Source: Candidatus Bipolaricaulia bacterium (GTDB lineage Bacteria > Bipolaricaulota > Bipolaricaulia > JBHIAT01). From it: a stretch of 22,526 nucleotides of DNA. Numbering within the stretch: the stretch's first letter is position 1; every line of letters begins with the position of its first letter. The stretch lies in contig JBHIAT010000043.1 in NCBI GenBank assembly GCA_046758705.1, positions 1 to 22,526 of the forward strand, read 5' to 3'. Positions 12,680-22,526 of the stretch are shown piece by piece. The position numbers and the translations under genes were made by a program. Under the pieces are notes generated by a model that had not been told where the DNA came from, made no database searches, and was given only the letters and a program-made list of their open reading frames with translations.

Positions 12680-13804
12680 GTGAAACTCGAAATTTTTGAG
12701 ATGGAGCGATTGCAGTCCAAATGGGAGAACCGGGTCCAATACAATCTTTCCGAAAGCGGGATTCACCCTCTCTCCCTAAAAGAGCTGCTCAGCGAAGATG
12801 AGGTTGACGAACTGCTCTCGTTACGTCTGGGCTACAATCAGACGAACGGGACCGAAGCGCTAAGAGAAAAGATCAGCCACCTCTATCCGGGCACGGATGC
12901 CGATAACATCCTGGTGACAAACGGTTCCGCAGAAGCCAATTTTATCTCAATCTGGAGCCAGATAGAGCCCGGGGATGAACTGATCTTTATGGTGCCGAAC
13001 TACATGCAGATTTGGGGACTTGCCCGTTCCTTGGCCGCTGTCGTTAAGCCATTCCATCTGAGACAGGAACTGAACTGGGCCCCAGATCTTGAAGAGCTGA
13101 AACAGCTGATCTCGTCTCGGACCAAGATGATCGTCCTCTGTAATCCGAATAACCCGACCGGCGCCACCTTGAGCGAGAAGTCCATGGAGGAGATCGTTCG
13201 GCTGGCCGAGAACGTGGGTGCCTGGATCTTATGCGACGAAGTCTATCGCGGTGCAGAATTAACCGGTGAGGAAACGCCAACCTTCTGGGGTTGCTATGAG
13301 AAGGTGATCGTCAGCCATGGACTCTCCAAAGCCTATAGCCTTCCCGGTTTGAGAATTGGCTGGTCGATTGGACCCAAAAAACTTATCGAAACAAGCTGGG
13401 CGTATCATGATTATTTAACCATCGCTCCAGGGATTATGAGTGACCGGCTGGCCCGCTTGGCCCTGGAGCCAGAGATGCGACGAAAAATCTTGGCCCGCAG
13501 CCGAAAAATCTTGACCGCAAATTTAAATTCGCTCAAGGCATGGCTCAACAGATACCCTGACCTATTCGAGCTGGTTCCTCCGCGTGCCGGAGCCATCGCT
13601 TTCATACGCTACAATTTGGAGATTAACTCCACGCAACTGGTCATGAAACTGCTTCATGAAAAAAGCGTTTTGGTGGTGCCCGGTAATTGTTTCGGCCTGG
13701 ATCACTTCATCCGTCTTGGCTACGGTGTAGAAAAGGATTATCTGTTAGCCGGTTTAGGGCTCATCGATGAGACGTTGCGAGAATTGAGCGACCACGCCAG
13801 GTAG
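12680..13804 (+). CDS. PLP-dependent aminotransferase class I/II
   Basis: YNLSES, VTNGSAEAN, NPNNPTG, DEVY, SKAYSLPGLRIGW (PLP Lys), FIRLGYG. Confidence 0.93.
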   Translation: MKLEIFEMERLQSKWENRVQYNLSESGIHPLSLKELLSEDEVDELLSLRLGYNQTNGTEALREKISHLYPGTDADNILVTNGSAEANFISIWSQIEPGDELIFMVPNYMQIWGLARSLAAVVKPFHLRQELNWAPDLEELKQLISSRTKMIVLCNPNNPTGATLSEKSMEEIVRLAENVGAWILCDEVYRGAELTGEETPTFWGCYEKVIVSHGLSKAYSLPGLRIGWSIGPKKLIETSWAYHDYLTIAPGIMSDRLARLALEPEMRRKILARSRKILTANLNSLKAWLNRYPDLFELVPPRAGAIAFIRYNLEINSTQLVMKLLHEKSVLVVPGNCFGLDHFIRLGYGVEKDYLLAGLGLIDETLRELSDHAR

Positions 13805-13884
13805 TCAGGTTGGCGGCTTCGTGGTTGACTGTTGCTTTGGAAGCTGCGATCTGCTAAGTTGAGTCGAACGAAGGGTGAAACATC

Positions 13885-15513
13885 ATGGAAACCAGATGGA
13901 AGCTAGAGAAGCCTGCAAACGAGGCGGATCGAATTCCGACTTACGCCCCCGGGACGCCCGAACGGGAGCGTCTCCTGGGGCAGATTGAAGCCCTCAAGTC
14001 CCAGACCGAGGAGATCCCCGTCATCGTCGGCGGCCGGGCGGTCCAGACTGGCGAACTCTTCGAAGTCCGCTGTCCCCACGATCACCAACGGGTCCTGGCA
14101 CACGCTCATCTGGCCACGGAAACGGAGCTTAACCAGGCCATCGACGTGGCGCTGGAGGCTCAACAGGCGTGGACAGCCCTCGATGGCTACCAGCGCGCTG
14201 CCGTCTTCCACCGGGCGGCAGATCTCCTGGCCGGATCCCGTCGCATCGAGAACATCGCCGCCATCATGGTAAACCAGTCCAAGACGCCCTTCGAGGCTGA
14301 GATCGACCTGGCTGAGCTGGTCGATTTTTGGCGTTTTAATGCCTATTACATGCAGTTCTTGTACGAACAGCAGCCCGACCAGGGGCCTAACGAACTCAAC
14401 CGCTTCGACTGGCGCCCCCTCGAGGGGTTCGTGCTTGCCGTTCCACCTTTCAACTTCTACTCCATCGGGGGCAACCTGCCCACCGCCCCTGCCCTGGTGG
14501 GCAACGTGGTCCTCTGGAAGCCGTCACGCTTGGTGCTCTTGGCCAATTACCGCATCATGCAAGTGCTCCAGGAAGCGGGTCTCCCCGACGGCGTGATCCA
14601 GTTCGTACCGTTTTCCAGCCGGTACAGCGATGTGATGCTCGGACATCCTGCCTTCGCCGGCCTGCACTTCACGGGGAGCTACGAGACGCTGGTGCACCTG
14701 TGGCAGCGTATCGGCGAGCATCTCAGCGATTACAGAAATTTCCCCCGCATCGTGGGTGAGACCGGCGGCAAAGATTTTATCTTTGTGCATCGGTCGGCGG
14801 ACGTCGAGACGGTTGCTGCCAACGTCATCCGGGGGGCGTTTGAGTATCAGGGCCAGAAGTGCTCCGCCGCCTCACGGATGTACGTGCCCGACAACCTGTG
14901 GGAGCCCCTCAAGGTGCGGCTAAACGAGGAGTTGCCCAAGCTCAACGTTGGCCCCGTCGACGACCTGAGCGTCGCCATCGGAGCCATCATCAGCGATGAG
15001 GCTTTCCAGAAGATCATCTCATATATCGAGCACGCCAAACAGCACCCTAAAGAGTACGAGATCGTCTACGGAGGCGACTACGACGATGCCCAAGGCTGGT
15101 TCGTCACACCCACGGTCGTGGTCACAAAGGACCCGCGCAGCAAGCTCATGGTTGAGGAGATCTTCGGACCGGTGCTGACCGTCTACGTCTATCTCGACGA
15201 AGCGTATGAGGAGACGCTGAGGTTGTGCGACGCATCGACGGTTTACGGGCTCACCGGTGCGATCTTCGCCCAGGATCGAGAGGCGATTGAGCAGGCCAAG
15301 CGCGTTCTGCGTTATGCAGCCGGCAACTTCTACATCAATGACAAGCCGACGGGGGCGATCGTAGGGAGACAGCCGTTCGGAGGCGCACGTCACTCGGGGA
15401 CGAACGACAAGGCAGGATCCTGGCTCAACGTGGCCCGCTGGCTCAGCCCGCGGGCGATCAAGGAGACGCCGATCCCGCCGCGCGACTGGCACCGTCCCTA
15501 CATGAAGGAGTGA
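13885..15513 (+). CDS. pruA: 1-pyrroline-5-carboxylate (L-glutamate gamma-semialdehyde) dehydrogenase
   Basis: YAPGTPER, QSKTPFEAEID, DFWRFN, RPLEGFV, PFNF, FPRIVGETGGKDF, AFEYQGQKCSA, FYINDKPTGAIVGRQPFGG.R.SGTNDKAG. Confidence 0.95.
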   Translation: METRWKLEKPANEADRIPTYAPGTPERERLLGQIEALKSQTEEIPVIVGGRAVQTGELFEVRCPHDHQRVLAHAHLATETELNQAIDVALEAQQAWTALDGYQRAAVFHRAADLLAGSRRIENIAAIMVNQSKTPFEAEIDLAELVDFWRFNAYYMQFLYEQQPDQGPNELNRFDWRPLEGFVLAVPPFNFYSIGGNLPTAPALVGNVVLWKPSRLVLLANYRIMQVLQEAGLPDGVIQFVPFSSRYSDVMLGHPAFAGLHFTGSYETLVHLWQRIGEHLSDYRNFPRIVGETGGKDFIFVHRSADVETVAANVIRGAFEYQGQKCSAASRMYVPDNLWEPLKVRLNEELPKLNVGPVDDLSVAIGAIISDEAFQKIISYIEHAKQHPKEYEIVYGGDYDDAQGWFVTPTVVVTKDPRSKLMVEEIFGPVLTVYVYLDEAYEETLRLCDASTVYGLTGAIFAQDREAIEQAKRVLRYAAGNFYINDKPTGAIVGRQPFGGARHSGTNDKAGSWLNVARWLSPRAIKETPIPPRDWHRPYMKE

Positions 15514-15519
15514 AGTACT

Positions 15520-17448
15520 ATAAGAAAGAAATTATCAGCGAACAATGAGTGGGTCGCTGGAGTTCTGGTTCTGGTCGTCGTTATTATCGTTGTGGTATCG
15601 CTTATCATTCCAAAGGGATCATCTGAAGGGCAGGCCATCGCTCAGGCGCCGGAAGCACTTGTCGCACCGCCTGATGTGGTGGCCACGTTTAACAAGGGCG
15701 GCTGCGCCGGTTGCCACACCATTCCCGGCATCCCCGGCGCCAACGGCCGAGTGGGACCAAATCTGTCGAACCTGGGTGTCGAAGCGGCCGGTCGTCGCCC
15801 CGGCTTCACCGCCGAGGAGTACATCCGCGAATCCATTCTGGATCCCAACGCGTTCATCGCCTCCAACTGTCCCACCGGCGACTGTCCCGCCGGCGTTATG
15901 CTGCAGAACTTTGCTCAGACGTTGAGTCCAGACGAATTGGAGAAGATCGTGAGCTATCTGTCCGTGTTGGGCACCGACCAAGCTGTAGCGTTGTCTGCCG
16001 AAGCCCCTGTCCCTGTGGTGCTGGACGCCAGTTTGCCGACGGAATCGGTGTTGGAGCCTTTCATGCCGCTGCCCAAGAGTCCGGCCAGCGATGCCCAGAT
16101 CGCACTCGGCAGGTTCCTGTTCTTCGACAGTCGCCTATCGGGCAATAACTCACTGAGCTGTGCCAGTTGCCATCAGCCGGACAACGCCTTCACCGACGGC
16201 GCCGTCATGAGCCAAGGCTATCCTTCCACTCAGTACTTCCGAAACATCCCCACGTTGCTCAACACCGTCTATGCCGAACGACTGTACTGGGATGGTCGCA
16301 TGGATGGGGCCGATATGCCGACACTGGTGCGAGATCACATCACCGAGGCGCACTTCATGAGCATGGATGGTCGGCTGATGGTAGAACGTCTGAACCAGGT
16401 GCCAGCCTATGTGGAGCTGTTTGGAGAGGCGTTCGGCAGCGAGCCCAGCTTCGGCAACGTGTTGAAGGCGATTACCGCCTATGTACAGTCACTCAACTCG
16501 CCGTCCACGGCCTATGATCGCTACCTGACCGGCGACACGACCGCCCTTTCCGCCGACGCCCGGGCCGGGCTGGCGCTCTTCAACGGAAGGGCCAATTGCA
16601 GCAGTTGCCACAGCGGACCTCTGCTCAGCGATTACAACTACTATAACATCGGTGTAACCACAGACCCGGCGATGTTTAACGATCCAGAACGGCATCTCAC
16701 CTTCCGCCGCTTCTTCCGCACACTGGGCGTATCTGACTATCGCCGTTTGCAGGAGGACGTGGGCCAGTTTGCCCTTACGATGGACCCGGCCGACCGGGGC
16801 AAGTTCCGCACACCCAGCCTGCGAGAGGTGGGCCGCACGGTACCCTATATGCACAACGGCAGGCTGACCACGTTGGAAGACGTGATACGCTTCTACAATC
16901 AGGGTGGCGGCCCCGGTCAGAACGCCGGGCTGAAGCCCTTGGGCCTGACCGATAACGAAATTGCTCAATTGGTGGCTTTCCTGGAGAGCCTGAGCAGTGA
17001 GCCAGTGCCGGTGGAAGCCCCGGTGCTACCCGATTATCAACTCCTGGCCCTGGGTGCCGCTCCACCGGAGCCGTCTGAGGAGCCGGTCGCCGCCCAGCCG
17101 ACCGTACAGGCCCCAGAGGCGCTGGTCGCACCGCCCGATGTGGCAGTGGCCTTCACCCAGGCCGGCTGTATCGCTTGCCACGTCATTCCCAGCGTCCCCG
17201 GCGCCACCGGCCAAGTGGGACCGGATCTGTCCAATCTGGGTGCTGAAGCGGCCGATCGTCGACCCGACCACACCGCCGAGGAGTACATCCGCGAGTCGAT
17301 TCTGGATCCCAATGCATTCATCACTCCTAATTGTCCCTTCGGCGACTGCCCCGCTGGCGTCATGCCAGCGATCTACGCCCAGACGTTGAGTCCAGATGAT
17401 CTGGAGAAGATGGTGAACTATCTGTCTGCTTTGGGCACCGGGAGGTGA
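15520..17448 (+). CDS. Membrane-anchored tetraheme protein: cytochrome c + MauG/CCP-family diheme domain + cytochrome c (IdrP-like fusion)
   Basis: Four CxxCH (CAGCH, CASCH, CSSCH, CIACH); LGRFLFFDSRLS, RNIPTLLN, YWDGR, FRTPSLR..PYMHNG..FYN. The frame is open upstream of GTG 15592 to ATA 15520, giving RKKLS..WVAGVLVLVVVIIVVVSLII (TM anchor) 9 nt after AAGGAG; start position uncertain. Confidence 0.88.
   Translation: MRKKLSANNEWVAGVLVLVVVIIVVVSLIIPKGSSEGQAIAQAPEALVAPPDVVATFNKGGCAGCHTIPGIPGANGRVGPNLSNLGVEAAGRRPGFTAEEYIRESILDPNAFIASNCPTGDCPAGVMLQNFAQTLSPDELEKIVSYLSVLGTDQAVALSAEAPVPVVLDASLPTESVLEPFMPLPKSPASDAQIALGRFLFFDSRLSGNNSLSCASCHQPDNAFTDGAVMSQGYPSTQYFRNIPTLLNTVYAERLYWDGRMDGADMPTLVRDHITEAHFMSMDGRLMVERLNQVPAYVELFGEAFGSEPSFGNVLKAITAYVQSLNSPSTAYDRYLTGDTTALSADARAGLALFNGRANCSSCHSGPLLSDYNYYNIGVTTDPAMFNDPERHLTFRRFFRTLGVSDYRRLQEDVGQFALTMDPADRGKFRTPSLREVGRTVPYMHNGRLTTLEDVIRFYNQGGGPGQNAGLKPLGLTDNEIAQLVAFLESLSSEPVPVEAPVLPDYQLLALGAAPPEPSEEPVAAQPTVQAPEALVAPPDVAVAFTQAGCIACHVIPSVPGATGQVGPDLSNLGAEAADRRPDHTAEEYIRESILDPNAFITPNCPFGDCPAGVMPAIYAQTLSPDDLEKMVNYLSALGTGR
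15643..15976 (+). repeat. Intragenic duplication copy 1 (cytochrome c domain)
   Basis: 334 bp, colinear with 17107-17440; about 82/111 aa identical by hand count. Confidence 0.92.
17107..17440 (+). repeat. Intragenic duplication copy 2 (cytochrome c domain)
   Basis: QAPEALVAPPDV...CIACH...TAEEYIRESILDPNAFI..NCP.GDCPAGVM...LSALGT, mirroring 15643-15976. Confidence 0.92.
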
Positions 17449-17453
17449 CGAAC

Positions 17454-18608
17454 ATGCTGAACCGCTTTGTATTCTTTGCGACCATGGGTCTGATCCTGGC
17501 CGCAGCTTTGACCCTGGTGTTGACGAGCCAACCGTCCGCCTCTATCCAGAGCGAGCGTGATTTTCCACCTCTGGCGCCCTTGCCGCCGGTGCCTGTCCCG
17601 CCTGACAATCCCATCACACCGGAAAAGGTGGAGCTGGGCCGGTTGCTCTACTTTGACCCGCGTATGTCAGCCGATGGCTCCCTCAGTTGCAACAGCTGCC
17701 ACTCCGTCAGCACAGGCTGGGCTGCTCCCACGGCCATCTCGTTCGCCGGTCCGGGGACCAGCCACTGGCGCAACGCCATGACGATCCTCAATGTAGGGTA
17801 TTACACCAAGCTGAACTGGGACGGCGCTAGGAAAAGCATCGAACAGCAAAACGCCGGCGCCTGGGGCGGCGCTGTGGCCGGCAATCTAGACTCGGCTCTG
17901 GCCGAAGAGCGCCTCGCCCAGATCCCCGAGTACGTGGAGCGGTTTCGCCAGGTCTTCGGCACCGAATATCCGCTGTGGGATGATGCCCTGAAGGCTGTGG
18001 CCACCTATCAGCGTACCATCGTTAGCCGAAACGTGCCCTTCGATGCCTACCTAAACGGCGATGAAACCGCCATCTCCGATGTGGCCAAGCGCGGTTTTGA
18101 GCTGTTTCAGGGTAAGGCTAACTGCATCGCATGTCACAACGGCGCTTTGACCAGCGACGACAGCTATCACGCACTGGGCGTCCCGATGAACCCGGACTTC
18201 CTCAACAGTCCGCTCAAGCAGATCACTTTCCGTTATGAGCAATGGGCCAAGGGTGCTCCGGAACAGATTTACCGGACCGCCACCGAGGATTTAGGCTTGT
18301 ACTATGTAACCAAGCAGGATTCCGATATAGGAAAATTCCGAACGCCCAGCCTGCGGGATCTGTGCTATACGGCACCCTATATGCACAACGGTGTCTTCAG
18401 CACGCTGGAGGAGGTGGTGGCGTTCTACAACGCCGGTGACGGTGACCACCCCAACAAGAGTCCGTTGATTCAGCCGCTGGGCTTGACCGCTGACGAGCAG
18501 GGGGACCTGGTGGAGTTTCTTAACAGCCTGTGTGGTGATCCTGTGACCGATGAAGCGCCGAAACTGCCGCCTTATGGCGTCTTCCCGGTACCCGAAGGAG
18601 GCGAGTAA
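17454..18608 (+). CDS. Diheme cytochrome c peroxidase/MauG-family protein (IdrP-like)
   Basis: Signal/TM segment, PPDNPITPEKVELGRLLYFDPRMS, CNSCH, WDGAR, CIACH, FRTPSLRDL..TAPYMHNG..FYN; ATG 17454 after GGAGGT. Confidence 0.92.
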   Translation: MLNRFVFFATMGLILAAALTLVLTSQPSASIQSERDFPPLAPLPPVPVPPDNPITPEKVELGRLLYFDPRMSADGSLSCNSCHSVSTGWAAPTAISFAGPGTSHWRNAMTILNVGYYTKLNWDGARKSIEQQNAGAWGGAVAGNLDSALAEERLAQIPEYVERFRQVFGTEYPLWDDALKAVATYQRTIVSRNVPFDAYLNGDETAISDVAKRGFELFQGKANCIACHNGALTSDDSYHALGVPMNPDFLNSPLKQITFRYEQWAKGAPEQIYRTATEDLGLYYVTKQDSDIGKFRTPSLRDLCYTAPYMHNGVFSTLEEVVAFYNAGDGDHPNKSPLIQPLGLTADEQGDLVEFLNSLCGDPVTDEAPKLPPYGVFPVPEGGE

Positions 18609-18609
18609 C

Positions 18610-19209
18610 ATGACCGAACAGAACCCGATCCACCAACCTGAGGACGAAACCTGCGGTGCCACCCGTCCGAGCTTCCAGGTCAACCGGCGCCGGTTCCTGT
18701 TCGGTGCCGGTGCCACCGTGACTTTGCTGACCATGCCTGGCTGGATGCGCCGTTTGGGAATGCCTGCCCAGGTAAACGCCCAGATCGCCGAGTACTCTCG
18801 TAAGTGGATCGGCAAGCTCAGCGAACTGAAGCTGGGCGAAGCGGTCGCCTTCAATTATCCCTGGGATCACCCCAACGCCACCAACTTTCTGATTAAGCTG
18901 AGCCAGCCGGCCGGCGGCGGTGTGGGACCAGAGGACGATGTGGTCGCTTTTAACAGCTTCTGCACTCACCAGGGCGGCCCGCTGGCCGGCAAATTCAACG
19001 GCGAAGTGGGCATGGTCGGCCCCTGTCCCCTGCACTGGACGACCTTTGACCTGACGCGCCACGGGATGGTGGTCAGCGGCCACGCCACCCTGGGCTTGCC
19101 GCAGATCATCTTGGAGACGGATGGCGACGATATTTACGCCACCGGTGTGCTGGGACTGATCTTTGGCTACCACAACAACCGAGTCGACCCGACGAGCTTA
19201 GGAGGCTGA
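18610..19209 (+). CDS. Rieske [2Fe-2S] small subunit, AioB/IdrB-like, Tat-exported
   Basis: NRRRFLFG Tat motif; FNYP, GGGVGPEDDVVAF, CTHQG...CPLH, HATLGLPQI.LE, IYATGVLGLIFG; ATG 18610 after AAGGAG. Confidence 0.93.
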   Translation: MTEQNPIHQPEDETCGATRPSFQVNRRRFLFGAGATVTLLTMPGWMRRLGMPAQVNAQIAEYSRKWIGKLSELKLGEAVAFNYPWDHPNATNFLIKLSQPAGGGVGPEDDVVAFNSFCTHQGGPLAGKFNGEVGMVGPCPLHWTTFDLTRHGMVVSGHATLGLPQIILETDGDDIYATGVLGLIFGYHNNRVDPTSLGG

Positions 19210-19212
19210 ACC

Positions 19213-21864
19213 ATGCCATTGGATTACACACCCCAAGATAGCGTGCCACTGCCACCCCAAGACGCGAACGTCCATACCACCGCTTGCGATTACTGCATTG
19301 TGGGCTGCGGCTACAAGGTCTACACCTGGCCGATCGGTCGTGAGGGCGGCCCCAGAGCAGAGGAGAACGCCCTGGGCGCTGACTTCCCCGGCGGGACGTT
19401 GAGACCCTGGATCAGCCCTAACCAGCACAACATTGTAAACATCGACGGCAAGGATCACCACGTGGTGGTCGTGCCCGACTTTGAAACGCGAGTGGTCAAC
19501 CGCTTTGGCGACCACTCGATTCGCGGTGGCACATTGGCACTGAAATGCTATAACCCCAACACGCCAACGCGCGATCGTCTGCTCTATCCGCAGATTCGCG
19601 TCAATGGCAAGCTCACCCGCGTAGACTGGGACACGGCACTCGAGATCATGGCTGCAGTGAGCCAGCACGTGCTCAGCAACCACGGCGAATCGGCCTGGGC
19701 CATGAAGACCTATTCGTACGAGTTCTTCGAAAACACCTATGCTATTACTAAGCTGGCGTTCGGGTCGATCAAAACACCCGCGTTCGCGCCCCACGACAAA
19801 CCGGGTGCGGGCAATGACACCGCTGGCGTAGACGACTCAGGCATCATCACCTTCAGCGCCAGCTACGAGGATTGGGGCTCAGCCGATGTCATCTTCATCT
19901 CCGGTACCGATCCGTTTGAGACCAAAACGATTGTCTTTACCGAGTGGATGATGAAGAGCGGCGCCAAACTGATCATGGTGCTGCCCCGTCGCACTGCGGG
20001 CGTCGCCTTCGCCGAAGCCACCGGTGGCCTGTTCCTGCAGATCGTCCCCGGCACTGACGCTCTACTGCACATGGCCATCAGCCGCATCATTCTGGAAAAC
20101 GGCTGGGAGGATCGGGAGTTCATCGAAACGTGGGTCGCCAACAACTGGGAGATTGGTGCCGGTATGGGCCGGGGCACCCGCAACACGCCCTGGCAATGGC
20201 GGACCACCTGGGGCAAGATCGGCGCCCTCGGCTTCGAGGACTACAAGGCGTGGCTGCTGAACTACGAACCGGCGTCTTTGGAGTTTGCCTCCCGGGAAAC
20301 GGGTATCCCGGCCGAAAAGATCCGTCAGGCAGCTGAGATGCTGACCGGCGGTGGCCGAGGCGAGCACCCCAAGGCCAGCTTCGGCTTCGAGAAGGGCAAC
20401 TACTGGAGCAACAACTACCTGAACACCGCCAGCTTCGCCGCCATGGGCCTGCTCTGCGGTGCCGGCAACCGCCCCGGTCAAGTGATCTCCCGCCTAGGCG
20501 GCCATCAGCGGGGTTGGATCGGCGCTGCCAGCTATCCTCGGGACAAATCGCCGGAGAAGCTGCCGGGACGGCGCAAGATCGAGATGGATCTGGATCGCTG
20601 GGTGGAGGCCGGCAACGTGCGCTTCGCCTGGGTGATCGGTACTACGTGGACCGGGGCCATGGCCGCCAGCCAGGAGCTGGCCCGTCGCATGCGGGAGATG
20701 ACAGCTGAGAACCCCCACCAGATTACCCGCCTGGACAAGCAGCACATCATTGACACGCTGATCAAACGGGTCGACAGCAGCGGCATGGTGATGGTGGACT
20801 CGGACATCTACCCGGTGGAACCGGTGGGCACCGAGCTTTCCGACATCGTGCTCCCTGCCGCTGCCTGGGGCGAGCACGATGCGGCACGTTGCAACGGCGA
20901 ACGCCGTCTGCGCCTGTACTCTAAGTTCTACGACCCACCCGGTGAGGTTAAACCCGACTGGTGGGCCATCAGTCGCTTTGCCCAGAAGATGGGCTTTGAA
21001 GACTACGACTGGGAAACCGATAACGACGTCTTCGAGGAAGCAGCGCGCTTCAGCCGCGGCGGCGTGCTGGATTACTTCGCGCTGGTGTGGAAGGCCAGGA
21101 AGGACGGCATCCCAGGCCACGAAGCCTTGCGTGCCCTGGGTACCACCGGTATCCAGACCCCCATCCGTTACGAAAACGGTCAGCTGATCAGCACCAAACG
21201 CCTGCACGATTCTACGCTCACGCTTGATTCGCCGCAGGGCCCCACCATCCACAGTAAATGGCTGACCCAGTTCAAAACCCACAGCGGCAAGGCATTGCTG
21301 ATCAAGAGCCCCTGGGAGCTGTTCAGCGACTTCTACGAGCGCATCCAGCCGGATCGCAGCAAAGGCGAGTTTTGGGTGACCAACGGCCGCATCAACGAAA
21401 TCTGGCAGTCGGGGTTCGACGACGTACGCAAGCCCTACGTTGAAAACCGCTGGCCTGCCACCTTCGTCGAAATCAACCCGGATAACGCCGCCGAATACGA
21501 CATCGAAAGCGGCGACTGGGTGCGCGTCTGGAACGATGACGTGTTGATCCAGACCGGCGGGTTCAACCGCGTTGAGAGCGACGCGATCAGCTTCACCTGG
21601 CTGGTGGAAAATAGTCACATCCGCATCGGCAGGGGCGAAGTCGAAGCGGTCGCCATCGTCACCGACGCCGTACCCCCCAGGTTGCTTTTCAGTTACTTCT
21701 TGCACCCCGGCAGTCCGGCCAACAGCCTGGTGCATCGGGTGCCCGATCCCATCACCAATCGCTACCGCTTCAAGCTGGGCAAGGGCAAGATCGAGCGCCT
21801 GGGTGAATCTCCCTTCAAGCACGACTTTACCCTGATGAGCTTCAAGCCGAGGGATGTGACGTAG
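19213..21864 (+). CDS. Molybdopterin (DMSO reductase family) large subunit, AioA/IdrA-like; candidate iodate reductase
   Basis: CDYCIVGCGYK with downstream HSIRGG ([3Fe-4S] C-x2-C-x3-C...S pattern), DRLLYP, FENT, EKGNYWSNNY, RLGGHQRG, NGERRLRLY, NGRINEIWQS; no own signal peptide; GGAGG RBS. Confidence 0.93.
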   Translation: MPLDYTPQDSVPLPPQDANVHTTACDYCIVGCGYKVYTWPIGREGGPRAEENALGADFPGGTLRPWISPNQHNIVNIDGKDHHVVVVPDFETRVVNRFGDHSIRGGTLALKCYNPNTPTRDRLLYPQIRVNGKLTRVDWDTALEIMAAVSQHVLSNHGESAWAMKTYSYEFFENTYAITKLAFGSIKTPAFAPHDKPGAGNDTAGVDDSGIITFSASYEDWGSADVIFISGTDPFETKTIVFTEWMMKSGAKLIMVLPRRTAGVAFAEATGGLFLQIVPGTDALLHMAISRIILENGWEDREFIETWVANNWEIGAGMGRGTRNTPWQWRTTWGKIGALGFEDYKAWLLNYEPASLEFASRETGIPAEKIRQAAEMLTGGGRGEHPKASFGFEKGNYWSNNYLNTASFAAMGLLCGAGNRPGQVISRLGGHQRGWIGAASYPRDKSPEKLPGRRKIEMDLDRWVEAGNVRFAWVIGTTWTGAMAASQELARRMREMTAENPHQITRLDKQHIIDTLIKRVDSSGMVMVDSDIYPVEPVGTELSDIVLPAAAWGEHDAARCNGERRLRLYSKFYDPPGEVKPDWWAISRFAQKMGFEDYDWETDNDVFEEAARFSRGGVLDYFALVWKARKDGIPGHEALRALGTTGIQTPIRYENGQLISTKRLHDSTLTLDSPQGPTIHSKWLTQFKTHSGKALLIKSPWELFSDFYERIQPDRSKGEFWVTNGRINEIWQSGFDDVRKPYVENRWPATFVEINPDNAAEYDIESGDWVRVWNDDVLIQTGGFNRVESDAISFTWLVENSHIRIGRGEVEAVAIVTDAVPPRLLFSYFLHPGSPANSLVHRVPDPITNRYRFKLGKGKIERLGESPFKHDFTLMSFKPRDVT

Positions 21865-21870
21865 CCAGGG

Positions 21871-22526
21871 ATGGAACTGGAGAAATTAGAGGGGTACCAG
21901 CGGTTCGTGACCAACGATCTCGTCGCAGAACTCGAAAAATATTTCCCAGAGGGGAGCTCAACCTTGTGTGGGATCGTCGGCGGCCGGCGGCCGTCGAGTT
22001 ACTCTCTGAGCCCATCGCTGTGGAACACCGCCTATCGAATCCTGAAGATCGATGCCGTCTACATCGCCTTCGATGTTTCGGTCGAACCGGATCACAACAA
22101 TCTGATCGCGTTCATCGACCGGCTCGTCGGCGACGATCGGTTCCGGGTGCTGTCGATCACCGATCCCTACAAACAGACGGTCCTCCAGCACCTAAACACA
22201 CGGGGGGAGGTCGACGGAGTTGCCCGACAGATCGGGGCGGTCAACACCATCATCAGGACCGAGGCCGGATTGTGTGGCTACAACACCGACGGGGTCGGGA
22301 TGGCCCGTAATCTCTCCTCAGTCATCGATCTGAAGGAGGGACGCGTGTTACAGCTCGGTGCCGGCGGGGCGGGACGGGCGATCGCCCACGGTCTGACAGA
22401 GCGGATGGGAAATGGGGTTTACTACCTACTTAACCGCACCGTCAGCCGGGCCAAGGAGCTGGCTGCCTCCTTGGAACGGGCCGACCATCGACTCGAAATC
22501 CGTCCGCTGGGTGGGGCGGCCGATCG
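21871..22526 (+). CDS. aroE: Shikimate dehydrogenase family protein, partial (runs off window end; not in ORF track)
   Basis: Manual translation: MELEKLEG...SYSLSPSLWN...YIAFDV...SITDPYKQ...IGAVNTI...GYNTDGVG...LGAGGAGRAI...NRTVSRAKEL. Confidence 0.88.
   Translation, partial: MELEKLEGYQRFVTNDLVAELEKYFPEGSSTLCGIVGGRRPSSYSLSPSLWNTAYRILKIDAVYIAFDVSVEPDHNNLIAFIDRLVGDDRFRVLSITDPYKQTVLQHLNTRGEVDGVARQIGAVNTIIRTEAGLCGYNTDGVGMARNLSSVIDLKEGRVLQLGAGGAGRAIAHGLTERMGNGVYYLLNRTVSRAKELAASLERADHRLEIRPLGGAAD

Follow-up and report, generated by a model that had tools for sequence, protein, structure and literature searches.

A four-heme cytochrome c-peroxidase-cytochrome c fusion in an Idr-like operon of an uncultured bacterium

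The window analyzed here is a stretch of 22,526 nucleotides (contig JBHIAT010000043.1 of assembly GCA_046758705.1), the whole of one contig in the metagenome-assembled genome (MAG) of an uncultured Bipolaricaulota-like bacterium. The gene under study, at positions 15520-17448 of the forward strand, encodes a diheme cytochrome c peroxidase (CCP) domain set between two class-I cytochrome c domains on a putative membrane anchor. Judged by sequence, this fusion appears to be the promoter-proximal peroxidase subunit of an iodate-reductase-type (Idr-like) operon, in the position of IdrP2. In the literature searched, its c-CCP-c layout is an undescribed architectural variant of the Idr-type peroxidase subunit with tethered cytochromes. 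The reading that we favor, and consider fairly probable as a whole, is that of an Idr-like P2 subunit that was acquired horizontally and whose tethered carriers feed the peroxidases and/or the reductase.

The fusion and its Idr-like operon

The fusion protein, 642 residues when translated from 15520, runs from an anchor helix through a class-I cytochrome c, a diheme CCP_MauG domain and an Ala/Pro/Glu-rich linker to a second class-I cytochrome c. Its heme motifs are CAGCH at residue 62, CASCH at 214, CSSCH at 360 and CIACH at 550. A cysteine pair, CPTGDC at residue 117 and CPFGDC at residue 605, lies five residues N-terminal of the GVM methionine of each c domain (M127 and M615). Pfam places Cytochrom_C at residues 57-148, CCP_MauG (PF03150) at 192-340 and Cytochrome_CBB3 at 546-635, so that translation and Pfam together confirm the domain order, the four hemes and the CPxGDC pairs that a sequence-only reading of the window had proposed. 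The window holds six CXXCH-coding patterns, four in the fusion gene and two in the gene of the second peroxidase. Shuffled versions of the window hold a mean of 1.37, and none of 100 shuffles reaches six.

Four genes follow one another in the order fusion, second peroxidase, Rieske subunit and molybdopterin (Mo) subunit, and they are packed for coupled translation. The stop of the fusion and the start of the second peroxidase overlap in GTGA (17445-17448), the second peroxidase ends one base before the ATG at 18610 of the Rieske gene, and the Rieske gene ends three bases before the ATG at 19213 of the Mo subunit. The second diheme peroxidase (17445-18608, forward strand, GTG start, 387 residues, PF03150 at 140 bits) stands in the IdrP1 position and carries an FYN tyrosine. 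The Rieske [2Fe-2S] small subunit, of the AioB/IdrB type, occupies the frame 18550-19209 (forward; likely real start ATG 18610) and has a twin-arginine translocation (Tat) motif, RRRFLF; it scores 103.7 bits against TIGR02694, above the cut-off of 95.65. The large subunit (19213-21864, forward) is, by Pfam and NCBIfam, a molybdopterin protein with a 3Fe-4S Rieske_3 domain and looks IdrA-like. The peroxidase family and the Rieske/molybdopterin context suggested from the letters are thus upheld by Pfam and NCBIfam. All six CXXCH sites lie in the two peroxidase genes, and no other cytochrome gene is found in the window; neither are ars or aio regulatory genes. A promoter scan of 13500-22526 returned no promoter-like site and a terminator scan found none inside the operon.

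By sequence comparison, the Mo subunit appears to belong with IdrA and not with AioA. A plasmid-borne homologue of Azonexus hydrophilus NCP973 matches 99% of its length at 57.2% identity, and IdrA of Denitromonas iodatirespirans IR-12 is 58% identical. The values are 29.7% for the Paracoccus AioA that stands beside ars genes and 30.7% for a Ralstonia homologue. In a FastTree phylogeny of 35 Mo-subunit sequences with Paracoccus and Ralstonia as outgroup, the window falls within a clade labeled Chloroflexota and Planctomycetota, and that clade appears as the sister of the proteobacterial IdrA clade. The protein has the Idr-type motifs HDK...ND and GGHQRG with an 8-residue insertion, and lacks the Aio-type HNRPAYNSE and GGHQEG; these two motifs we take to be the substrate site and catalytic residues of AioA. 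Azonexus hydrophilus NCP973 is listed as an iodate reducer in the available part of PMC13455634, and the synteny of idrABP1P2 is what separates Idr from Aio according to Reyes-Umana et al. (PMC8692401, in excerpt).

The gene neighborhood was compared by scanning one genome per species, which gave 174 confirmed relatives, of which 80 loci were kept. A related CCP adjoins the Rieske gene, the Mo gene or both in 47 of the 80. The rest comprise nine loci that end too early, two of unclear layout (L053 and L057) and 22 distant single CCPs, 31-42% identical and without Rieske or Mo neighbors. The order peroxidase-peroxidase-Rieske-Mo recurs in genomes labeled Chloroflexota, Planctomycetota, Methylomirabilota, Rokuibacteriota and Betaproteobacteria. 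Among these genomes is that of the proven iodate reducer Denitromonas iodatirespirans IR-12, whose cluster is collinear with that of the window. Its proteins match the window's four at 49, 53, 53 and 58% identity, with the CCP domain of the fusion 49% identical to its first peroxidase and the second peroxidase 53% identical to its second. In a tree of peroxidase domains, a single clade with support 1.0 unites the 43 "first" domains, those of the fusion and of Denitromonas among them, and sets them apart from the 46 "second" domains; these labels come from the best BLAST match and agree with gene position in all loci except L034. The accession order of the Azoarcus DN11 proteins is A, B, P1, P2 and the genes of 'M. 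iodofontis' run P2, P1, B, A (PMC10149662 and PMC10989891, both in part), so the fusion would be IdrP2 by position and the 387-residue protein IdrP1.

A different arrangement is seen in five alphaproteobacterial loci (L051, L052, L054, L055 and L056), which have the order Rieske, Mo, a diheme cytochrome open reading frame (ORF; in four of the five, not in L052) and one peroxidase. Their Mo subunit is about 46% identical to that of the window and branches outside the other peroxidase-linked clade.

Distribution of the layout and integrity of the gene

The layout was surveyed by domain-by-domain BLAST in the 120 best 90%-identity clusters plus the query, taken from 1377 hits among 8000 scored candidates. 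The commonest layouts were c-CCP-CCP (53), c-CCP-c (27, two of them the window's own readings) and CCP-CCP (23), followed by c-CCP (11), c-c-CCP (4), CCP-c (2, both fragments) and CCP (1). Identity to the fusion ranges from 56 to 70% among the 25 other c-CCP-c proteins, all of which keep the four heme motifs, both methionines, both cysteine pairs and F458-Y459. Ten of the 80 loci have the layout: eight in a single frame, L009 split over two frames and L016 cut by the contig start. They are labeled Caldilineaceae, Chloroflexota, Anaerolineae, 'Chloroflexia' and, for one bin, Krumholzibacteriota. A profile search of 1.84 billion 50%-identity representatives matched 4786 proteins at E <= 1e-30, and among the best 150 of these there is only one full-length c-CCP-c representative, P0056.

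The c-CCP-c proteins are therefore a narrow family rather than a widespread one, recurrent in public metagenomes and uncultured bacteria, and they are part of a modular series of c-CCP, c-c-CCP, c-CCP-c and c-CCP-CCP. The sequence-only reading knew of no such architecture, and these counts show that it is not singular, yet no paper describing it was found: a literature search of main texts gave no description of the c-CCP-c architecture, and the texts found on iodate and idrA make no mention of Chloroflexota. In a tree of c domains, most C-terminal domains cluster with one another, and the outer N-terminal domain of the c-c-CCP proteins joins them, which suggests that the second module was placed at either end of the peroxidase.

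Two further layouts can be described here. The c-CCP-CCP proteins, of about 860 residues, have their two peroxidases fused behind a single N-terminal cytochrome c and occur in Planctomycetota-labeled and some other genomes (P0005-P0086; loci L008, L020, L029, L031 and L071). Four proteins (P0283, P0284, P0288 and P0290) are membrane-anchored c-c proteins without a peroxidase, and their N-termini resemble those of the c-CCP-c family.

The N-terminal cytochrome c domain (15661-15975, forward; Pfam Cytochrom_C, SoxX-like in NCBIfam) has its CAGCH at 15703-15717, its cysteine pair at 15868-15885 and its methionine at 15898-15900. The cysteines and histidine of the heme motif, the methionine and both cysteines of the pair are invariant in the family alignment. 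The C-terminal domain (17128-17445, forward; Pfam Cytochrome_CBB3 and AlphaFold2 [AF2]) has the corresponding sites at 17167-17181 (CIACH), 17332-17349 and 17362-17364. Between them lie the CCP_MauG domain (16027-17037, forward, PF03150), with CASCH at 16159-16173, CSSCH at 16597-16611, Trp257 at 16288-16290 and Tyr459 at 16894-16896, and the Ala/Pro/Glu-rich flexible linker (17038-17127, forward), which varies in length and for which AF2 gives a predicted local distance difference test (pLDDT) score below 50 over residues 503-533. Across the 26 family members, 16-119 residues separate the anchor from the N-terminal c domain, only 15-18 separate that domain from the CCP, and 25-74 separate the CCP from the C-terminal c domain. 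Both cysteines of the CPxGDC pair are present in 36 of 42 c domains and both are missing in the other six, a pattern that would fit a disulfide.

Modeled alone from 42 aligned sequences, the C-terminal c domain reaches a pLDDT of 88.3 and a predicted template modeling (pTM) score of 0.80. Its Foldseek neighbors are the diheme Kustd1711 (template modeling score 0.63), SoxX, the caa3 cytochrome c domain, SorU and c551, so that the nearest solved folds of the model appear to be, all of them, class-I carriers or tethered carrier domains. The flanking c domains pass the SoxX cut-off (TIGR04485; 79.2 bits against 61, in two stretches). Since SoxA (TIGR04484) has no match in the host genome, which is 93.9% complete, they are SoxX-like in fold only.

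The sequence-only reading had also taken the two c domains for a duplication. The repeat itself is real: copy 1 (15631-15930) and copy 2 (17095-17394), both on the forward strand and found by direct-repeat search, the second also by BLASTP, share 79% of 300 nucleotides. BLASTP aligns the domains with 83 of 116 residues identical (72%, E 2e-62), and a global alignment gives 74% over 111 residues. Among the 100 codons of the copies, 51 are identical, 21 differ synonymously and 28 non-synonymously, so the copies are well diverged. As the origin of the layout, however, a duplication fails, because the two c domains of one protein, 74% identical in the fusion and 71% in its closest relative, P0003, are only 47-62% identical in the other 24 aligned members. 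The layout thus predates the high similarity of the two copies. On the question of gene conversion, the C copies of the fusion and P0003 fall among N-type domains in an 83-row tree and on the C-type side, with support 68, in a smaller one. An approximately unbiased (AU) test of a related grouping gives p = 0.38, and at the only six diagnostic columns the C copy of the fusion is N-like at two and C-like at two.

A gene with an internal repeat invites the suspicion of an artifact, either a misjoined cytochrome copy or a frame that is not one gene. The copies do share identical runs, the longest of 24 nucleotides, the contigs of two runs break near them, and the automatic gene call disagrees with the frame read here. 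However, the copies differ at 21% of bases, and contigs from two further samples of the same study match the region with 0 differences. One of these, of 1723 nucleotides (15656-17378), spans from inside copy 1 to inside copy 2, so that the artifact held out earlier as a possible refutation has not materialized. All compared contigs belong to one study and the run that spans the entire region may be the window's source, so these matches support the assembly against a misjoin and are not fully independent proof. Since 25 further protein clusters and 10 loci from other genomes share the layout, the chance of an artifact is close to negligible. A fourth sample (run X4) carries a related strain over 15863-17673, at 95-99% identity and with 21 listed base differences across the gene.

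The start of the gene calls for a closer look. The ORF, 15520-17448, opens directly 3' of the TGA at 15511-15513 and closes at the TGA at 17446-17448. The first TGA is the stop of the upstream aldehyde dehydrogenase gene, in the same frame as the fusion and 6 nucleotides before an ATA. There is no ATG, GTG or TTG between this TGA and the hydrophobic helix. The first canonical start of the frame, GTG 15592, would truncate the helix, and the stored automatic call (P0002, 590 residues) starts 3' of it and so lacks the anchor. The ATA at 15520-15522 (forward) is the only start compatible with the anchor and is probably the start of the fusion, a non-canonical one. This choice is favored because no conventional codon precedes the helix, because a Shine-Dalgarno-like AAGGAG (15505-15510, forward) lies 9 nucleotides before it, inside the final codons of the upstream gene, because the two closest homologues begin MK(S/F)SAND..., which aligns with IRKKLSANN of the fusion, and because the ATA is identical across contigs from three samples. 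A basic stretch then precedes the 20-residue hydrophobic helix (residues 12-31; 15553-15612, forward; helix 10-29 in AF2), which would serve either as membrane anchor or as uncleaved signal. All 26 members of the c-CCP-c family have a helix of this kind and, after it, a stalk of 16-119 residues rich in A, E and P.

Peroxidase chemistry and the path of electrons

The CCP domain of the fusion is a member of the CCP_MauG superfamily by its PF03150 score (144.1 bits, gathering cut-off 25.6) and by its two CXXCH motifs. Its best match in the PDB is MacA (4aal, E 9e-45), and other bacterial cytochrome c peroxidases (bCCPs) match as well. Where MacA has KIMG the fusion has RFYN, which puts Tyr459 at the position of a methionine that is presumably the sixth ligand of the electron-transfer heme in canonical bCCPs. 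Likewise, Tyr234 aligns with the MacA histidine that differs between entries 4aal and 4aao (H versus G). We take this residue, on the loop after the first heme motif, to be the distal histidine of the bis-His resting state. Tyrosine occupies the distal position in 41 of 43 "first" peroxidases, and phenylalanine in the other two. With a tyrosine for the methionine and no distal histidine, the domain does not look like a canonical bCCP. The inter-heme tryptophan is present as W257 in YWDGR; 40 of 43 "first" peroxidases have W there and three have R, and some members of the c-CCP-c family alignment have R, S or H.

The same residues lead to MauG. The stretch PYMHNG...FYN of the second peroxidase aligns without gaps to MauG 277-295, with FYN falling on F293-Y294-N295, and Tyr459 in the FYN of the fusion occupies the same alignment column. 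All but one of the 43 "first" peroxidases and all 46 "second" ones have a tyrosine at this position, including both of Denitromonas and both of Azonexus, and so does MbnH. The title of a reference in PMC6405878 names Tyr294 of MauG as an axial heme ligand. The papers on Idr, in the portions available, call both proteins simply cytochrome c peroxidases. In idr-type clusters, those of the proven iodate reducers Denitromonas and Azonexus included (L050 7001-9104; L082 2113-4381), both peroxidases have the MauG-type tyrosine and lack the distal histidine of canonical bCCPs; the second peroxidase of the window is a further case.

On the reading we favor, the two cytochrome modules would be built-in one-electron carriers, taking electrons from a membrane quinol:cytochrome c oxidoreductase and handing them to the peroxidase pair at its six-coordinate (His/Tyr) heme. 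The N-terminal c domain would be held close to the peroxidase by its short, fixed spacer. The C-terminal one, on a long and variable tail, could act as a swinging arm that reaches the partner peroxidase and probably also feeds the Rieske center of the reductase. The tethered modules would then take the place of a small soluble cytochrome of the c551 type, whose gene in Proteobacteria comes right after idrA.

Such a relay is plausible, judged from architecture and gene content. In Denitromonas (L050 12494-12805) and Azonexus (L082 7718-8035), idrA is immediately followed by a free gene for a monoheme c551-like cytochrome, and a published model for Denitromonas has cytochrome c551 as the donor to IdrAB (PMC8692401, in part). 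Of the 17 loci that have a fused c domain, none has an ORF with CXXCH within 1.5 kb after the Mo gene, compared with 8 of the 15 that lack such a domain. The loci are related to each other, so that the comparison is not a statistical test. The tethered shuttle in place of a soluble cytochrome, as proposed earlier, fits these comparative data and keeps its standing as an inference. The built-in carriers are also favored because the window encodes no other cytochrome and because the host has further tethered c domains of this kind. The host genome encodes cytochrome c maturation proteins, five cytochrome b homologues and one heme-copper oxidase. Four more of its proteins end in a similar class-I c domain tethered to membrane or multiheme parts (C35 15117-15437; C65 17458-17829; C80 7400-7843; C88 10657-11025), and the C80 copy lies just downstream of the heme-copper oxidase gene. 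ORFs resembling the c551-like gene are also present in L043 and L046.

That the two peroxidases form a pair is supported by three lines of evidence: the 53 c-CCP-CCP fusions, the co-migration of IdrA, IdrP1 and IdrP2 in an active gel band (PMC10149662, in excerpt) and a complex model. The modeling of complexes, suggested as a check on the earlier reading, gave 0.85 for the CCP domain of the fusion with the second peroxidase, against 0.01 for the best of three controls. Of 157 solved complexes 116 come up to this mark, and of 215 mismatched pairs only 2. At least 94% of contacts are common to the prediction runs, and the pLDDT of the partner is at least 86. Of course, this pass may only reflect likeness to the solved homodimers of related peroxidases.

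A number of points weigh against the favored reading. Its electron path is drawn from architecture and gene content alone, and 7 of the 15 loci without a fused c domain also have no cytochrome gene nearby, so the complementarity is partial and confounded by phylogeny. The fused c domains as orthologues of the proteobacterial c551-type gene had to be rejected, with only 10 of 30 residues around the heme motif identical. The full-length AF2 model of the fusion, built on a 26-row alignment, is poor (mean pLDDT 63.5, pTM 0.38, with CCP residues 207-284 below 50) and carries no information on how the domains might dock. An ATA start is unusual, which leaves the anchor, and even efficient translation, uncertain. 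Iodate reduction has been shown only for proteobacterial enzymes 57-58% identical to this one, so that iodate is only a putative substrate for this clade. Finally, a monoderm host without a periplasm, considered as the cause of tethering, was dropped: the host genome has an Omp85/BamA-like gene (112 bits), so a missing periplasm cannot explain tethering here. Given the envelopes of Chloroflexota, the idea could hold only for the donor lineage.

Other explanations were considered. Both modules might only re-reduce the diheme center of their own protein, making the fusion a self-contained cytochrome c peroxidase similar to YhjA, with the reductase fed by another carrier. This would explain why the N-terminal c domain sits on a fixed spacer of 15-18 residues beside the CCP in all 26 family members and why forms with one module are common (the 11 c-CCP clusters); it has a precedent in YhjA, an anchored peroxidase with an added heme domain (PMC10301912 and PMC6405878, in part), and other tethered c domains of the genome could serve the reductase. 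However, it offers no reason for a second module on a long, variable tail or, alternatively, far out at the N-terminus, the window encodes no other cytochrome, and free cytochrome genes stand beside idrA only where no c domain is fused. We consider it rather improbable. More remote still is the idea that the system runs as an oxidase, like arsenite oxidase, with the Mo subunit oxidizing a substrate and electrons passing through the Rieske subunit to the tethered cytochromes and on to the peroxidases (with H2O2) or a terminal oxidase. The Mo and Rieske subunits do pass the NCBIfam arsenite-oxidase cut-offs (438.7 versus 359 and 103.7 versus 95.65), AioAB reduces a c-type cytochrome and a solved complex (8ed4) is among the weak fold matches, and a c domain of this type is encoded next to the heme-copper oxidase gene of the host. 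Even so, the oxidase is quite unlikely, given a Mo subunit about 30% identical to AioA-type proteins and 57-58% to the IdrA of iodate reducers, active-site motifs of the Idr and not the Aio type, a window without ars or aio regulatory genes, and peroxidase genes of the kind that, beside a reductase, mark Idr and not Aio (PMC8692401, in the part consulted).

The tyrosine ligands raise one more possibility, namely that the peroxidases are MauG-like maturation or oxidation enzymes, whose Tyr-ligated dihemes form bis-Fe(IV) and oxidize a protein or small molecule, the cytochromes resetting the hemes. The substrate could be a residue of the reductase or an iodine species, and the reaction would not be simple H2O2 detoxification. 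In favor are the tyrosine at the MauG Tyr294 position in nearly all members of both groups (42 of 43 and 46 of 46), the missing histidine at the MacA distal position, the fact that MauG and MbnH are the best NCBIfam matches, and a function of IdrP1 and IdrP2 that is called unclear in the available text of PMC10149662. The NCBIfam scores, however, lie far below their equivalog cut-offs (210.2 bits against 443.85 for MauG, TIGR03791, and 207.9 against 362.85 for MbnH, TIGR04039), and tethered one-electron donors suit a reductive peroxidase cycle. Besides, BthA has the same tyrosine ligand, forms bis-Fe(IV) and still reduces H2O2 catalytically (PMC6405878, in part), so the tyrosine is compatible with a peroxidase role. 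We see only a slim chance for the MauG-like alternative. A bolder extension of the tethered relay is that Idr-type enzymes are one wired assembly, in which a P2:P1 His/Tyr diheme heterodimer would be integral to the Mo reductase, a swinging cytochrome would distribute the electrons, and a peroxide or hypoiodous intermediate would be consumed on the spot. It is prompted by the natural fusions, c-P2-c here and c-P2-P1 in Planctomycetota-labeled genomes, and can be offered only as a speculative suggestion, with the odds against it.

Host, significance and known relatives

The host MAG has 3.7 Mb in 319 contigs, is 93.9% complete and 4.7% contaminated, and by RpoB its nearest named relatives, 57-70% identical, belong to Candidatus Bipolaricaulota/Acetothermia. 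The Idr-like cluster was probably acquired by this Bipolaricaulota-like genome from a Chloroflexota-like donor, since none of 120 other genomes of the class yielded the Mo subunit at E <= 1e-40 and none of 30 class genomes the peroxidase domain, the guanine-cytosine (GC) content steps up near 13.5 kb of the window, from about 0.51 to about 0.60, and the closest relatives are labeled Chloroflexota. The dehydrogenase upstream has orthologues, 71-79% identical, in 10 of 60 genomes of the same class. Clean insertion boundaries could not be drawn: the gene order around this dehydrogenase is not conserved in four class relatives.

The host stands out in its class in other respects as well. Its genome of 3.7 Mb compares with 1.1-2.3 Mb in nearly all class relatives (one has 3.7 Mb), its RpoB has 1293 residues compared to about 1110, and an IdrA-like gene turned up in no other of the 121 class genomes searched. 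A gene of the chlorite dismutase (Cld) family (C134 9017-9571, 192 bits) lies distant from the Idr-like cluster and may be the heme-synthesis enzyme of that family and not Cld.

The role of the two peroxidases in iodate reduction has been called unclear (PMC10149662, in excerpt), and the entry of electrons into the Idr enzyme is known only as a model. Natural fusions are Rosetta-stone evidence here, on three counts. They indicate that the first peroxidase works with a class-I cytochrome c and that the two peroxidases belong together, as the 53 c-CCP-CCP clusters and a heterodimer model that passed its controls also suggest, and both peroxidases would be Tyr-ligated proteins of the MauG/BthA type. 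With donor and enzyme on one polypeptide, the fusion is a handy object for spectroscopy and for the kinetics of intramolecular electron transfer. The window and its relatives also widen the range of idr-type clusters, which now includes MAGs labeled Chloroflexota and, from a hydrothermal vent sample, a Bipolaricaulota-like genome.

The principle of fusing a cognate class-I cytochrome to an enzyme is known from subunit II of the caa3 oxidase, from the cytochrome-c-tethered copper nitrite reductase and from the C1-C2-NirS of Chloroflexi, which are reported to add two c domains to NirS (PMC8756737, in part). One of the folds nearest to the c domain of the fusion is that of the caa3 c domain (1w2l, 2yev_B). 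Unlike the fusion, these enzymes are not peroxidases, and none of them has a carrier on both sides of the catalytic domain. Among peroxidase relatives, MauG, MbnH and BthA share with the fusion the tyrosine ligation and the missing distal histidine. They differ in having no extra cytochrome domains and in a mau/mbn context where that of the fusion is Idr-like. YhjA, the triheme protein of E. coli, is a membrane-anchored diheme peroxidase with an added N-terminal heme domain that brings electrons (PMC10301912, in the text available). In this comparison, which is one of layout and not of sequence, it has one extra heme and none C-terminal. A published network groups YhjA with the canonical bCCPs (PMC6405878, as excerpted), whereas the fusion has a tyrosine at the position of their methionine ligand.

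The closest counterparts are IdrP2 and IdrP1 of Pseudomonas sp. SCT, Denitromonas IR-12, Azoarcus sp. DN11 and Azonexus NCP973, which have the same operon order as the window. IdrP2 shares with the fusion an orthologous CCP clade, the FYN tyrosine and two CXXCH motifs. The Idr systems of Proteobacteria, in Denitromonas and Azonexus, have a free cytochrome gene after the Mo gene where the window has none, and both the host and the presumed donor lie outside Proteobacteria. The IdrP proteins described so far are soluble, have a mass of about 40 kDa and carry two hemes and a Sec signal (PMC10149662, in part). The fusion, with its 642 residues, four CXXCH motifs, hydrophobic helix and two added c domains, is therefore best regarded as a variant of IdrP that appears to carry its cytochromes with it.

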